Source: Acidobacteriota bacterium (GTDB taxonomy: Bacteria; Acidobacteriota; Vicinamibacteria; Vicinamibacterales; CAVVIG01). Taken from it: a DNA stretch of 64,000 bases. This document shows, piece after piece, positions 22,125 through 28,029 of the stretch; position 1 is the stretch's first letter; the number at the start of each line of letters is the position of its first letter. The stretch spans positions 7,850-71,849 of the forward strand of contig JAGWRA010000176.1 in assembly GCA_028876655.1 (NCBI GenBank). Direction: 5' to 3'. Both the position numbers and the translations under genes were made by a program. Below the pieces are notes generated by a model, which saw only the letters and a program-made list of their open reading frames with translations, was not told where the DNA came from and ran no database searches.

Positions 22125-25100
22125 CGAGAAGCCGCTCGACTACCCGGCCCGGCTGCGTGCGGCGCTGGCCGCCCTGCAGAAGCAGCAGGCGCGGATCGAC
22201 CAGCTCGAGCGCGACCGGCGCGAGCCGATTGCGGTCGTCGGCATGGGCTGCCGCTTTCCAGGCGGCGCCGACAGCCCCGCCGCGTTCTGGCAGATGCTCC
22301 GCGCCGGCGTCGATCCGATCCGCGAAGTGCCCGCCGACCGCTGGAACGTCGACGACTGGTTCGATCCGGTGCCGGGCACGCCCGGCCGCACCTACACCCG
22401 CTGGGGCGGCTTCCTCGACGGCGTGGATCGGTTCGATGCGCGATTCTTCCGGATCTCCCCGCGTGAGGCCCTCGGGATGGATCCGCAGCAGCGGTTGCTG
22501 CTGGAGGTCGCCTGGGAGGCGCTCGAGGACGCGGGCGTGCCGCCCGATTCGCTCGGCGGATCGCAGACCGGCGTCTACGTCGGCCTGACGACGCTCGACT
22601 ATGCGAAGGTCGTCTACCGAACCGACTTCGGGCGGATGGACGCCTACACCGCCACCGGCAACGTCGCGAACATCGCGGCGGGGCGCCTCTCGTACGTCCT
22701 CGGCCTGCGCGGCCCGAGCCTCGCGGTCGACACGGCCTGCTCCTCGTCGCTCGTCGCCGTCCACCTCGCGTGCCAGGGCCTGCTGGCCGGCGAATGCGAC
22801 GCCGCGCTCGCCGCCGGGGTCAACCTGATCCTGACGCCGGACAACACCATTGCCGTCTCGCAGGCCCGCATGCTGGCACCCGACGGGCGGTGCAAGACGT
22901 TCGACCGCGCGGCCGACGGCTACGCCCGCAGCGAGGGCTGCGGCGTCATCGTGCTGAAGCGGCTGTCGAAGGCGCGCGCGGACGGCAATCGCGTCCTCGC
23001 GGTGATCCGCGGATCGGCCGTGCGCCAGGACGGCGCGCGCAGCGGCCTCACCGTGCCGAACGGGCCGGCGCAGGAGGCGGTGATCCGCGCCGCCCTGCAG
23101 GCGGCGGGCGTACCGCCGGGCGAGGTCGGCTACGTCGAGGCGCACGGCACCGGCACGTCGCTCGGCGATCCGATCGAGATGGAAGCGCTCGCCGGCGTCT
23201 TCCGCGAGGGGCACGACCGCACCCGCCCGCTCATCGTCGGCGCGCTGAAGAGCACGCTCGGCCACATGGAGTCGGCCGCCGGCATTGGCGGCGTCATCAA
23301 GGCCGTGCTCGCGCTCGGCCACGGCGAGGTACCGCCGAACCTCCACTTCGACGCGATCAATCCCGACATCGATCCGGACGAGATCCCGGCCGTCCTCCCC
23401 GTGCGCCCGACGGCATGGCCGGCGGCGTACGGCCGCCGCCTCGCGGGTGTCAGCGCGTTCGGATCGAGCGGCACGGTCGCCCACGTCACGCTGGAAGAGG
23501 CACCGGCCGACGTGCCCGCGGCGGCGGCGTCCCCCGGCCGGCCGTGGCACGTGCTGCCGTTGAGCGCCCGCACGCCGGCGGCCCTCGAGGATCTCGCCGG
23601 CCGCTGGGCCTCACTGCTCGACGCGCAGCCGGACGACGCGGCACTGGGCGACCTCTGCCACACCGCGGGCGCCGGGCGGACCCAGTTCCCGGTCCGGCGC
23701 GCCGTGGTCGCCCGATCCTGTGCCGAGGCGGCGCGCGCGCTGCGCGCCGCCGTGCCCGCGGGCCCCGATCGCGACGGCGACTGGCAGGCCGCCCCGCCGG
23801 TGGCGTTCCTCTTCACCGGTCAGGGGGCCCAGCGCGCGTCGATGGGGCGCGAGCTGTACGACACGATGCCGGCGTTCCGCACGGCCATCGACCGATGCGC
23901 GGAGGCGACCGATCCGCACATGGCCCGTCCGCTGCGCGACGTGCTCTTCGGCGACGAGTCCGAACGGCTGCTGGCATCGACGGAATTCAGCCAGCCGGCG
24001 ATCTTCGCCTTCGAGTACGCGCTCGACGCGCTCTGGCGGTCGTGGGGTGTGACGCCGTCGGCGCTGCTCGGCCACAGCCTCGGTGAGTACGTCGCAGCCT
24101 GCGTGGCGGGGGTCTTCAGCCTCGAGGACGGACTGCGCCTCGTCGCCGCCCGCGGCCGGCTGATGCAGGACACGGCGCCCGGCGCGATGCTCGCCGTGTT
24201 CGCGAACGAGCGCCGCTGCCGCGCTGCCATCGAGGGGCACGGCGGGTCGCTGGCCCTGGCGGCGGTGAACGGTCCGGACGCCTGCGTGGTATCCGGCGCG
24301 CCGGAGGCCATCGAGCACGTGGCCGCCGAACTGGGCCGGGACGGGATTGCCACGACGCGGCTGCGGGTCGGCCAGGCGTTCCACTCGCCGCTGATGGCGC
24401 CGGCGCTCGATCGGTTCGCAGCCGTGCTCGAGACGATCGCCCTGGCACCGCCCGCGGCGCGGGTGGTCTCCAATCTCACCGGCCACTGGGCGGGTGCCGA
24501 GCTGGCCACGCCGGCGTACTGGCTGCAGCACGCCCTCGAGCCGGTCCGCTTCCAGGCGGGCGTCGAGCTGCTGCACGCCGGCGGCATCGGGACGTTCATC
24601 GAGATCGGCCCGGCACCGACGCTGCTGACGCTCGCGGAGCGGTGCTGGGGCGGCGGCCCCGTCAGCTGGCTCCCCTCGGTCCGTCCCGGGCGGAGCGAAA
24701 CGGAACAGGTCCTCGAGACGCTCGCCGCCTGCTACGTCGCCGGCCACGACATCGACTGGCGCGGCGTCGACCGCGGCCGGCCGTACCGCCTGACGGCGGC
24801 GCCGACCTATCCGTTCCAGCGCGAGCGCTACTGGCCCGATCCCGAACAGCCGGCCGCGACGCCGGCGACGCGCGGCGCCATGCCCGCGCGCACGATCGAG
24901 GTCGTCGGTGCCCCGGCGCCCGCACGGGCGGCCGGCGCCCGCGCCGCGGCCGGGCCGCAGGACGCCGCGATCGGCCCGCGGTTCGGCGTGATGTTCTTCA
25001 ACGGCAGCGAGGCGCGCGACGGTTCCGACAGTTACGAGCTGCTGATCGAGTCGGCGCGCTTCGCCGATCGCCACGGCTTCTCGAGCGTGTGGCTGCCGGA

Positions 25101-28029: not shown

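Follow-up and report, generated by a model that had tools for sequence, protein, structure and literature searches.

Two consecutive polyketide synthase (PKS) modules, each with an in-line LLM domain ahead of a KR, are encoded, as part of a lipopeptide gene cluster, in the window, i.e. the whole stretch of 64,000 nucleotides that was analysed. The pair is an old, recurring cassette of uncultured soil bacteria; its parts are known, and their doubling is not described in the literature found. We think it rather probable that module 2 is a working extension module that would make a 2,3-dihydroxy unit and, together with module 1, a chain oxygenated on C2-C5. The observations cover the order and the intact motifs of the domains, the family of the LLM and the purifying selection on it, as well as phylogeny and recurrence.

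Domain organisation and gene neighbourhood

The module-2 gene (22117..28029, + strand) encodes 1970 aa, which were assigned from Pfam and NCBIfam hits as KS-AT-LLM-psiKR-KR-ACP, and the GC3 of this ORF (0.92) is of the coding type. Its start overlaps the stop of the module-1 gene by 8 nt, and the N-terminus of the protein is a coiled-coil-like docking region. The KS is of the elongating type (22222..23352, + strand; aa 36-412; PF00109 and PF02801), and is followed by the AT (23806..24651, + strand; aa 564-845; PF00698). The second LLM domain, LLM-B, a predicted alpha-hydroxylase, lies at 24982..26001 (+ strand; aa 956-1295; TIGR04020). Downstream of it are a psiKR (aa 1334-1576) and the catalytic KR (aa 1577-1769), both within 26116..27423 (+ strand; PF08659), and the ACP (27763..27942, + strand; aa 1883-1942; PF00550), with Ser1907 in GVDSLMA. 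The protein ends in a TEIEI tail (28012..28026, + strand), as seen when the tails of LLM-KR module proteins were listed. One polypeptide thus carries, in this order, an elongating KS (C/H/H), AT, LLM, psiKR, KR (K/S/Y/N) and ACP (Ser). The preliminary description had proposed a second in-line LLM between the post-AT linker and the KR, without DH halves, and the Pfam and NCBIfam hits and a junction alignment agree with this. It had placed the domain at 24982-26000, where the start was right and the end one base short, the missing base being the last of the final codon.

The same architecture was found in the orthologs P0004 (1961 aa) and P0013 (1953 aa), on independent contigs. Several studies of soil, wastewater and sediment have runs with near-identical pieces of module 2, in the form of short Logan contigs. 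One contig of 1260 nt matches 24966-26225 exactly, running from just upstream of the LLM domain into the pre-psiKR linker; it spans the LLM-to-psiKR junction exactly, and the LLM is given as covered except for its first 16 nt. The AT-to-LLM junction (24829-24965) was spanned by no single piece among the Logan matches listed, and the full-length orthologs bridge this gap. Because the same order recurs in independent orthologs and in near-identical environmental pieces, it is not an assembly artefact.

The module-1 gene (13413..22124, + strand; 2903 aa) reads FAAL-ACP-KS-AT-DHn-LLM-DHc-psiKR-KR-ACP by Pfam and NCBIfam, with the FAAL families matched, and its LLM domain, LLM-A (nt 18624-19643, + strand; aa 1738-2077), matched TIGR04020 with 491.5 bits. 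Divergent from module 1 is a single-module NRPS gene (9752..13204, - strand), whose protein has TubC_N (PF18563), C, A and T domains and is a candidate for taking over the product of module 2. The next co-directional gene downstream of module 2 begins with a condensation domain. A carbamoyltransferase is also encoded in the window.

Catalytic motifs of KS, AT and KR

The KS, AT and KR had been described as intact, with a malonyl-type AT and a KR with YAAAN and no LDD motif. This held for the KS, with C208, H343 and H383 (motifs DTACSSS, HGTGT and LGHMES), and for YAAAN in the KR. The motif of the AT is QAFH (Q753, H756) and not HAFH, in a domain that otherwise has Ser654 in GHSLGE and Arg679. 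By its motifs AT2 appears malonyl-like (the Phe is kept), with an atypical first residue. Its dN/dS of 0.36 is the most relaxed among the catalytic domains, and in other module-2 orthologs the motif is RAFH, or the AT is decayed or absent. The QAFH motif and the faster evolution therefore make the extender unit less certain.

KR2 retains GGLGGLG, K1702, S1725, Y1739 (YAAAN) and N1743. An LDD motif is literally missing, but its loop HAAGVWHD holds WHD with the diagnostic Asp (D1684), and the A-type Trp is absent; because D1684 is kept and that Trp is lacking, KR2 is classed as B-type-like, and KR1, with the Trp motif, as A-type. Across the orthologs, module-2 KRs read HAAGVWxD and module-1 KRs HLAGxPEx, and in the module-1 KRs of six orthologs the Tyr-region pattern caught SAVWGS. 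Judged by these motifs, the two KRs fall into different stereochemical classes.

Family and integrity of the LLM domain

LLM-B aligned with model positions 1-340 of 341 of TIGR04020, the MupA/Atu3671 family of FMN-dependent LLMs, and its 468.6 bits lie above the cut-off of 244.45; a search of genomes also recovered it, at 473.6 bits. The Pfam family Bac_luciferase matched aa 956-1270 (E 3.2e-43). The closest solved structure is PuwE (PDB 6KET; E 1.9e-112), with 47% identity over the family alignment. A secondary match to TIGR03619 (93.7 bits) stayed below the cut-off of 166.9, and F420 enzymes in the PDB matched weakly.

Loss of conserved residues, which the preliminary description had taken as the mark of a dead domain, was not seen. 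Both LLM-B and LLM-A retain 104/104 conserved columns, defined as those at least 95% conserved among 120 PKS-embedded homologs and including the His997 of PERHF. The dN/dS against an ortholog was 0.20 for LLM-B, 0.16 for the KS and 0.21 for the KR. On these grounds LLM-B does not look dead; it appears intact and under purifying selection. No flavin reductase partner was found within the window, and PF01613 is absent from the genome, which elsewhere holds one SsuE-type FMN reductase (PF03358) and two nitroreductase-family genes.

Dehydratase halves

The DH families PF14765 and PF21089 had no match in the module-2 protein at E<=0.01 (Pfam), and both match the module-1 protein, where the halves lie at aa 1588-1736 (DHn) and aa 2103-2258 (DHc). 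Pfam, alignment and a phmmer search of P0001 with the two DH halves of module 1 also revealed no DH remnant in module 2. At the position of DHn module 2 has a Pro/Ala-rich linker of 39 aa (24865..24981, + strand; aa 917-955), and at that of DHc a linker of 12-38 aa (26002..26115, + strand; aa 1296-1333), both delimited by blastp segment boundaries and the junction alignment. The latter is the fastest-evolving segment (dN/dS 0.79). Module 2 thus lacks the split-hot-dog, DH-nested LLM layout of module 1 and OcfI.

The module-1 DH retains its catalytic His and the DxxxQ Asp. Across the LLM-KR module family the DH folds appear partly vestigial. At one other locus (L009) module 1 is also without DH, an argument that the chemistry of the cassette can do without the DH halves.

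Origin and recurrence of the module pair

Trees were built with FastTree on 122 LLM domains and with IQ-TREE and UFBoot on a 51-sequence subset, with PuwE as the outgroup. Of the placement proposed in the preliminary description, the trees cover three references, namely PuwE, P0005 (an LLM of the NRPS type) and the LLM that this genome has inside an A domain; MupA, OocM, CalD and MtaG lie outside the comparison. The genome contains a separate NRPS, on contig C56, with an LLM in its adenylation domain.

LLM-A-type and LLM-B-type domains formed sister clades (UFBoot 92 and 100, and 99 for the two joined), both holding orthologs from several other loci and both nested among DH-associated LLMs. 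The two domains had been called paralogous, and this was borne out by the sister clades and by identities of 63-66% (amino acids) and 75.9% (nucleotides). Identity between the modules was 62% for the KS, 52% for the AT, 63-66% for the LLM and 35% for the KR. KS1 and KS2 are closer to each other (62%) than to the genome's other KS domains (47-49%), and the KS tree is congruent with the LLM tree. In the KR-ACP part there was no signal of duplication, with KR2 at 35% identity to KR1 and 31-37% to unrelated KRs of the genome.

The pairwise protein and nucleotide alignments that had been suggested for defining the duplication boundaries showed a signal ending at the LLM. The proposed module duplication therefore stands for KS-AT-LLM, not for KR-ACP, and not as a local event, given orthologs of each copy. 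Whether one copy had lost or the other gained the DH halves had been left as alternatives; because both clades sit within DH-associated LLMs, module 2 most likely lost them. Read from the sequences, the pair is most likely an ancient duplication of the KS-AT-(DH)LLM part, after which the module-2 lineage would have lost both DH halves and, in some descendants, the AT as well. The pair would then have been kept as a conserved, translationally coupled cassette.

A FAAL with two LLM/KR modules was found at no fewer than seven metagenome loci, and the DH-less module 2 at seven or more other loci. Among about 690 genomes sampled from the phylum, 3 have the two modules next to each other, and G004 and G289 are among the genomes with adjacent pairs. 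Other cassette loci are L006, L007, L008, L009 and a 97-kb JGI contig, and P0014/P0065 and P0015/P0042 are putative pairs, matched by the length of their contigs. The divergent TubC_N-C-A-T gene upstream of module 1 is conserved at L007, L008, L010/L011 and on the 97-kb JGI contig. A terminal TEIEI-type motif is present in 16 of the 18 LLM-KR module proteins examined, and the two of a separate DH-less clade end in EEFTV and EEFVV. The literature was searched for microsclerodermin, for LLM-PKS clusters of Acidobacteria or Vicinamibacteria and for LLM/Ox modules in succession, and the tandem cassette was described nowhere in it; coverage of subscription journals was thin, which makes this weak evidence.

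Proposed chemistry

The cofactor, the site and timing of hydroxylation and the product are predicted from the domain content and from characterised relatives. Most likely, the ACP-bound 3-oxoacyl chain would be alpha-hydroxylated and then ketoreduced. KS2 would condense malonyl onto the chain received from module 1, giving an ACP-bound 3-oxoacyl thioester, and the in-line LLM-B would hydroxylate C2 of this 3-oxo intermediate, drawing its FMNH2 from a flavin reductase whose gene lies elsewhere in the genome. KR2, being B-type-like, would then reduce C3 to complete the 2,3-dihydroxy unit. Module 1, with its FAAL priming, DH-nested LLM and A-type KR, most likely does the equal chemistry one step earlier. 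Repeated alpha,beta-diol chemistry would be the best-supported reading of the product-linked relatives.

Adjacent to the fatty tail, the pair probably forms four oxygenated carbons in a row. The result would be a fatty acyl chain oxygenated on C2-C5; provided that the DH fold of module 1 carries out no dehydration, it would be a 2,3,4,5-tetrahydroxyacyl thioester. The KR-set carbinols would be expected to have opposite configuration, and the finished chain would pass to an NRPS module. Since the module-1 DH has kept its catalytic His and the DxxxQ Asp, it could remove water from the first diol and leave an enol or 2-oxo unit, in which case no tetraol would be made.

More tentatively, the FAAL, the two LLM/KR modules with their EIEI tail and the TubC_N-C-A-T protein may form a dedicated, portable machine for N-(2,3,4,5-tetrahydroxyacyl) amino acids or peptides. 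Such products would have an aldonic-acid-like head with alternating, KR-set stereochemistry, and the natural variants of the module would mark the DH fold and the cis-AT as dispensable accessories of in-line alpha-hydroxylation.

Alternative explanations

A luciferase fold also supports Baeyer-Villiger-type chemistry, and the sequence leaves the regiochemistry of LLM-B unfixed. LLM-B could oxidise the chain without leaving a stable 2-hydroxyl, through a 2-oxo product, a Baeyer-Villiger insertion, shortening by one carbon or hydroxylation at C4; chain shortening or Baeyer-Villiger-type chemistry has been credited to CalD and MndB, of calyculin and mandelalide (PMC8739492). We regard such an outcome as unlikely, since each ortholog has an intact KR after the LLM, three product-linked LLM+KR relatives keep the alpha-OH/beta-OH pair, and MupA performs a simple alpha-hydroxylation. 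LLM-B might instead be a reductase or dehydrogenase that depends on F420 or flavin and acts on the 3-oxo or 2,3-enoyl group; this would suit a superfamily that includes F420-dependent oxidoreductases, and the weak matches to TIGR03619 and to F420 structures. It is very improbable, as TIGR04020, an FMN monooxygenase subfamily, and PuwE match far better than anything else, a complete KR is already present in the module, and MupA is a biochemically shown oxygenase.

The atypical QAFH of the AT (RAFH in orthologs) could instead be read as selecting a hydroxymalonyl-type extender, from which the C2 oxygen would come, with LLM-B a non-catalytic scaffold or relic; the partly vestigial DH folds show that structural domains occur here. 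The retention of all 104 conserved positions and the dN/dS of 0.20 speak against a scaffold, as does the fact that sister lineages drop the AT and not the LLM, and Pfam scans of the window's large ORFs found no FkbH-like or hydroxymalonyl-ACP pathway domain, so that there is hardly any room for this reading. A recent, genome-specific tandem duplication or gene conversion, with the DH-less copy a fresh deletion, might be suspected from the higher nucleotide identity of the LLM than of the flanking KS-AT (75.9% and 68.6%), but the GC3 of 0.92 inflates nucleotide identity. The two modules are not recent duplicates, because the sister clades each have orthologs at other loci. LLM-B groups with P0004 (85%) and P0003, and LLM-A with P0028 (91%), rather than with each other, the cross-pair identities are uniformly 62-72% (66% for LLM-A against LLM-B), and the DH-less module 2 recurs at no fewer than seven other loci. 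A recent origin was rejected, its probability being negligible. The reading we prefer remains an ancient pair of modules, each with a hydroxylating LLM followed by ketoreduction.

Discussion

Few routes lead to alpha-carbon oxygenation on assembly lines. In-line flavin hydroxylase domains are one of them, and to our knowledge products have been linked to single in-line LLM modules only. If the reading is true, a conserved LLM pair would oxygenate each carbon of a four-carbon stretch and give a sugar-acid-like lipid head; none was found with such a fully oxygenated four-carbon head among characterised natural products. The cassette occurs in uncultured soil members of the Acidobacteriota, a phylum from which, as far as we know, very few metabolites have been described. 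The module occurs as a series of variants, in which the LLM may or may not be nested in a DH fold and the AT may be present, dead or missing, and these natural versions offer a comparison for engineering an alpha-hydroxylating PKS module. The module pair reveals no new enzyme class or mechanism.

Comparison with known systems

Corramycin, which has vic-diol units, was considered as a parallel and set aside, as it follows another logic and its paper has no LLM; myxoglucamide MxgE and the floridanemamide Ox/AMT pair were likewise rejected for their different arrangements. LLM-B is not of the MtaG/MelG MOX type, for it sits between a PKS AT and KR and not in an adenylation domain.

The PuwE Ox of the puwainaphycin synthetase (PDB 6KET; PMC4219810) resembles the LLM of module 2 in being built in line into a PKS/NRPS pathway primed by a FAAL. 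PuwE is paired with an aminotransferase to give 3-amino-2-hydroxy acids, has no KR after it and lies outside the PKS LLM+KR clade, whereas no PLP aminotransferase beside the LLM (PuwE-type AMT+Ox) was found among the Pfam hits of P0001 or P0002. MupA of the mupirocin bimodule and OocM of oocydin belong, as LLM-B does, to the TIGR04020 family, and the biochemistry of MupA places alpha-hydroxylation before ketoreduction: it hydroxylates the alpha-carbon of the ACP-bound beta-keto thioester but leaves the beta-hydroxy form untouched, and it depends on a separate FMN reductase for its FMNH2 (PMC10952193). MupA is free-standing and trans-acting and works with a KS0 bimodule of a trans-AT PKS, whereas here the LLM is fused in line and the KS is elongating, with its Cys and both His and no KS0 next to it.

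In the trans-AT palmerolide A PKS (Ca. Synoicihabitans palmerolidicus, Opitutaceae) an LLM and a KR share module 9, as here, and the carbamoyl theme is also shared, a carbamoyltransferase being encoded in the window. There is a single LLM module, and the pair of C10-OH and C11-O, the latter carbamoylated, was assigned to it bioinformatically (PMC8739492). Opitutaceae also have AT-less proteins of the order KS-LLM-KR-ACP, which share the LLM clade of LLM-B and are candidates for the palmerolide synthase itself. OcfI, of the occidiofungin/burkholdine line in Burkholderia, also belongs to a lipopeptide pathway and likewise joins a TIGR04020-type LLM to KR-ACP in one protein. Its listed length of 3324 bp, under the name of a flavin monooxygenase, corresponds to Burkholderia proteins of 1107 aa (LLM-DHc-psiKR-KR-ACP) whose LLM is about 60% identical to LLM-B. 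The fatty amino acid of occidiofungin carries a vicinal triol. OcfI differs in that a split DH fold surrounds its LLM, and its line has a single LLM module and a later module that aminates; its role is known from annotation.

A like arrangement, with FAAL priming, cis-AT, an in-line Ox/LLM and then KR and ACP, is found in CcsC, which holds the loading and first extension module for cyanochelin B (Leptolyngbya sp. NIES-3755), where the FAAL-primed Ox+KR module gives a structure-proven 2,3-dihydroxy-2-methylacyl unit (PMC12628792), that is, a 2,3-dihydroxyacyl next to the fatty tail. Homologs with the CcsC layout (P0073, P0080 and P0085; cMT-bearing LLM-DHc-KR-ACP) keep DHc and are split over two proteins. 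The cyanochelin line has a single Ox module together with a C-methyltransferase, whereas module 2 here has neither DH halves nor a cMT and is the second of two LLM modules.

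Gene cluster and module architecture

The genome bin comprised 4.19 Mb in 281 contigs, the window had a GC content of ~72%, and the closest protein relatives carried Vicinamibacterales/Acidobacteriota MAG labels. A large hybrid cluster was delimited by frames with coding-type GC3. The module-1 gene (13413–22124, plus strand) encodes 2903 aa with the order FAAL-ACP-KS-AT-DHn-LLM-DHc-psiKR-KR-ACP, and the module-2 gene (22117–28029, plus strand) 1970 aa with the order KS-AT-LLM-psiKR-KR-ACP. Four plus-strand NRPS genes with ~7 C-A-T modules in total lie 3' of module 2. On the minus strand are a PKS gene (AT-KR-ACP in the window, KS just past its end), a C-A-T-reductase gene with an adjoining carbamoyltransferase gene (54710–56710) and, divergently upstream of module 1, a TubC_N-C-A-T gene (9752–13204). 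A DUF481 gene for an outer-membrane-type protein (53646–54656, plus strand) and a DUF697 gene (8178–9110, minus strand) flank the cluster and may belong to it, e.g. with a role in export. Mechanical ORF calls for the first two plus-strand NRPS genes (27381–31406 and 30704–39334) overlapped their neighbours; the C-domain positions and the 1122-aa ortholog in the syntenic locus L007 place the probable true starts near 28040 and 31412.

In the module-2 protein, TIGR04020 matched aa 956–1295 (468.6 bits against a cut-off of 244.45, whole model covered), equal to nt 24982–26001, where the preliminary description had placed the LLM domain. The catalytic residues of KS, AT, KR and ACP were complete, and Pfam found no DH family in module 2 and both halves in the module-1 protein. 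Compared pairwise, modules 1 and 2 shared 56% aa and 68.6% nt identity from KS through AT to the post-AT linker and 63% aa and 75.9% nt in the LLM, while psiKR-KR-ACP was weakly alignable (34% aa). The extra blocks of module 1 (aa 1588–1736 and 2103–2258) corresponded to the DH halves; module 2 had only linkers of 39 and 12–38 residues at these positions. The same domain order was found in orthologous genes on independent contigs, and near-identical fragments in soil, wastewater, sediment and mine-drainage runs, including one exact 1260-nt contig covering nearly the whole LLM domain and continuing into the pre-psiKR linker. The architecture of module 2 is real.

Integrity of the LLM and AT domains

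Loss of conserved residues, proposed earlier as the sign of a dead LLM, was assessed by aligning 120 LLM domains that are embedded in PKSs and came from the homolog search; 104 columns of this alignment were ≥95% conserved. LLM-B, the domain of module 2, kept 104/104, as did LLM-A of module 1. Against the L007 ortholog, dN/dS was 0.20 in the LLM, 0.16 in the KS and 0.21 in the KR, with the flanking linker (0.79) well above the LLM and the AT (0.36, the highest among the catalytic domains) also above it. The closest solved structure was the PuwE monooxygenase domain (PDB 6KET, E 1.9e-112). Because of the retained residues, the low dN/dS and this structural match, LLM-B looks functional.

The AT of module 2 (23806–24651, plus strand) has QAFH at 24373–24384, and the orthologs P0004 and P0013 have RAFH. 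The AT decays within the module-2 clade: some members carry QAFH or RAFH, P0008 and P0009 have lost GHSxG, and P0007, P0011, P0014 and P0015 have no AT. Such sequences suggest a trend toward loading by a trans or neighbour-module AT.

Recurrence of the cassette

The cassette, a FAAL with two consecutive LLM/KR modules, was recovered in L007 together with the divergent TubC_N NRPS and the following C-A-T gene, in L006 followed by more PKS modules, in L008, on a 97-kb JGI contig, and in L009 with both modules DH-less; two further pairs were inferred from modules on contigs of equal length. Adjacent TIGR04020 pairs occurred in 3/301 species-representative genomes sampled from the class and, among 401 sampled from the phylum, in the genus of this genome only. 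The cassette is rare and patchy. Proteins labelled Opitutaceae were included in the AT-less module-2 clade. DUF481 was again found beside the cassette in L008, and DUF697 in L006, in the further locus L010 and on the JGI contig.

The module-1 stop and module-2 start overlap by 8 nt (22117–22124), as in L007, L008 and the JGI contig, with 4 nt in L009; this recurrence suggests that translation of the two LLM modules is coupled and that the coupling is conserved. A C-terminal tail, [D/E]x[E/D][I/V/F/M]E[I/L], was present in 16/18 LLM-KR module proteins (here TEIEI, 28012–28026), and the remaining two, from a separate DH-less clade, ended in EEFTV and EEFVV. A comparable tail, EEIDL, closes the NRPS protein whose gene stops at 39334. 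Since the tail is conserved and most loci have a divergent TubC_N docking-domain C-A-T gene upstream of module 1, this minus-strand NRPS, and not the plus-strand gene that follows, may receive the module-2 product.

Origin of the module pair

Among the 120 relatives, 73 were DH-nested/DH-split, 18 KS-AT-LLM and 21 AT-less KS-LLM. In an IQ-TREE phylogeny rooted on PuwE and NRPS-type LLMs, the module-1-type (UFBoot 92) and module-2-type (UFBoot 100) clades were sisters together with a small DH-variable group (UFBoot 99), nested within a DH-associated LLM radiation; FastTree concurred and the KS tree was congruent. A local duplication was rejected, LLM-B being nearer to P0004 (85% identity) than to LLM-A (66%); LLM-A was 91% identical to the homolog P0028. 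Paralogy itself held for KS, AT and LLM: within the genome, KS1 and KS2 were 62% identical against 47–49% with any other KS, and AT1 and AT2 52% against 43–47%. KR1 and KR2 gave no duplication signal (35%, against 31–37% with other KRs), and in the KR-ACP part there was either replacement or divergence past recognition. By these trees and identities the pair is an ancient, and not a local, duplication of KS-AT-(DH)LLM, with the DH halves most likely lost by module 2.

Predicted chemistry

MupA, of the same NCBIfam family, hydroxylates the alpha-carbon of an ACP-bound beta-keto thioester in vitro; it is inactive on the beta-hydroxy form, and its FMN is reduced by an external reductase (PMC10952193). 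In cyanochelin B, a FAAL-primed module with Ox, cMT and KR accounts for a structure-proven 2,3-dihydroxy-2-methylacyl unit (PMC12628792), and the C10-OH/C11-O pair of palmerolide is assigned to module 9 (LLM+KR; PMC8739492). For OcfI, from the occidiofungin pathway, the annotation is flavin monooxygenase (3324 bp), a size matching the 1107-aa Burkholderia LLM-DHc-KR-ACP proteins of the homolog set. On the basis of these relatives, LLM-B would hydroxylate C2 of the 3-oxoacyl-ACP, after which KR2 would reduce C3. Provided that both modules act alike, the pair is predicted to yield a fatty-tailed 2,3,4,5-tetrahydroxyacyl thioester.

This prediction is least certain with regard to the module-1 DH fold (18201–18509 and 19689–20144, plus strand), which keeps the catalytic His (HPLLG) and the DxxxQ Asp (DAALQ). 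The orthologs P0022, P0023 and P0090 are without the DH His, and many orthologs have Glu for Asp. The DH-less first module of L009 argues that the fold is unnecessary for the core chemistry of the cassette.

KR2 indeed contains no LDD motif, as had been reported, but the diagnostic Asp is present (D1684, in WHD). Module-2 KRs have HAAGVWxD in 8/9 cassette orthologs, this KR2 included (in P0004 the loop gave no match), and the A-type Trp is absent from 9/9. Among module-1 KRs, HLAGxPEx was read in the nine orthologs with a match to the loop, and SAVWGS, with the A-type Trp, in the six with a match to the Tyr-region pattern. Having the Asp and not the Trp, KR2 is B-type-like. The C3 and C5 carbinols should be of opposite configuration, if the usual rules extend to alpha-hydroxylated substrates.

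Comparison with known systems

No flavin reductase was found within the window, a parallel to mupirocin, where an external reductase supplies FMNH2. PF01613 was absent from the genome and present in 13/14 control genomes; an SsuE-type FMN reductase (C53:2480–2917, outside the PKS cluster) and two nitroreductase-family genes, not clustered with the PKS, are candidate suppliers. In palmerolide, a carbamoyltransferase acts on the beta-hydroxyl beside the LLM-installed alpha-hydroxyl; by analogy, a polyol hydroxyl could be the target of the carbamoyltransferase here.

A third TIGR04020 domain in the genome (L001; C56:9567–10574, minus strand, 499.6 bits) belongs to an NRPS frame of 3590 aa, where it interrupts an adenylation domain between A4-like and A5-like regions, as in MtaG/MelG; it is ~51% identical to LLM-A, LLM-B and PuwE. 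Module 2 itself is not a DH-nested module, a trans-AT alpha-hydroxylation bimodule, a PuwE-type AMT/Ox pair or an MtaG-type A-domain insert.

The preliminary observation is confirmed and its interpretation, as corrected here, supported. All parts are of known kinds (TIGR04020 in-line hydroxylase, KR, FAAL priming), and diol-bearing products have been linked to single LLM+KR modules (PMC12628792, PMC8739492). A literature search, with most subscription journals outside it, returned no description of a doubled conserved cassette with a predicted fully oxygenated C2–C5 head.
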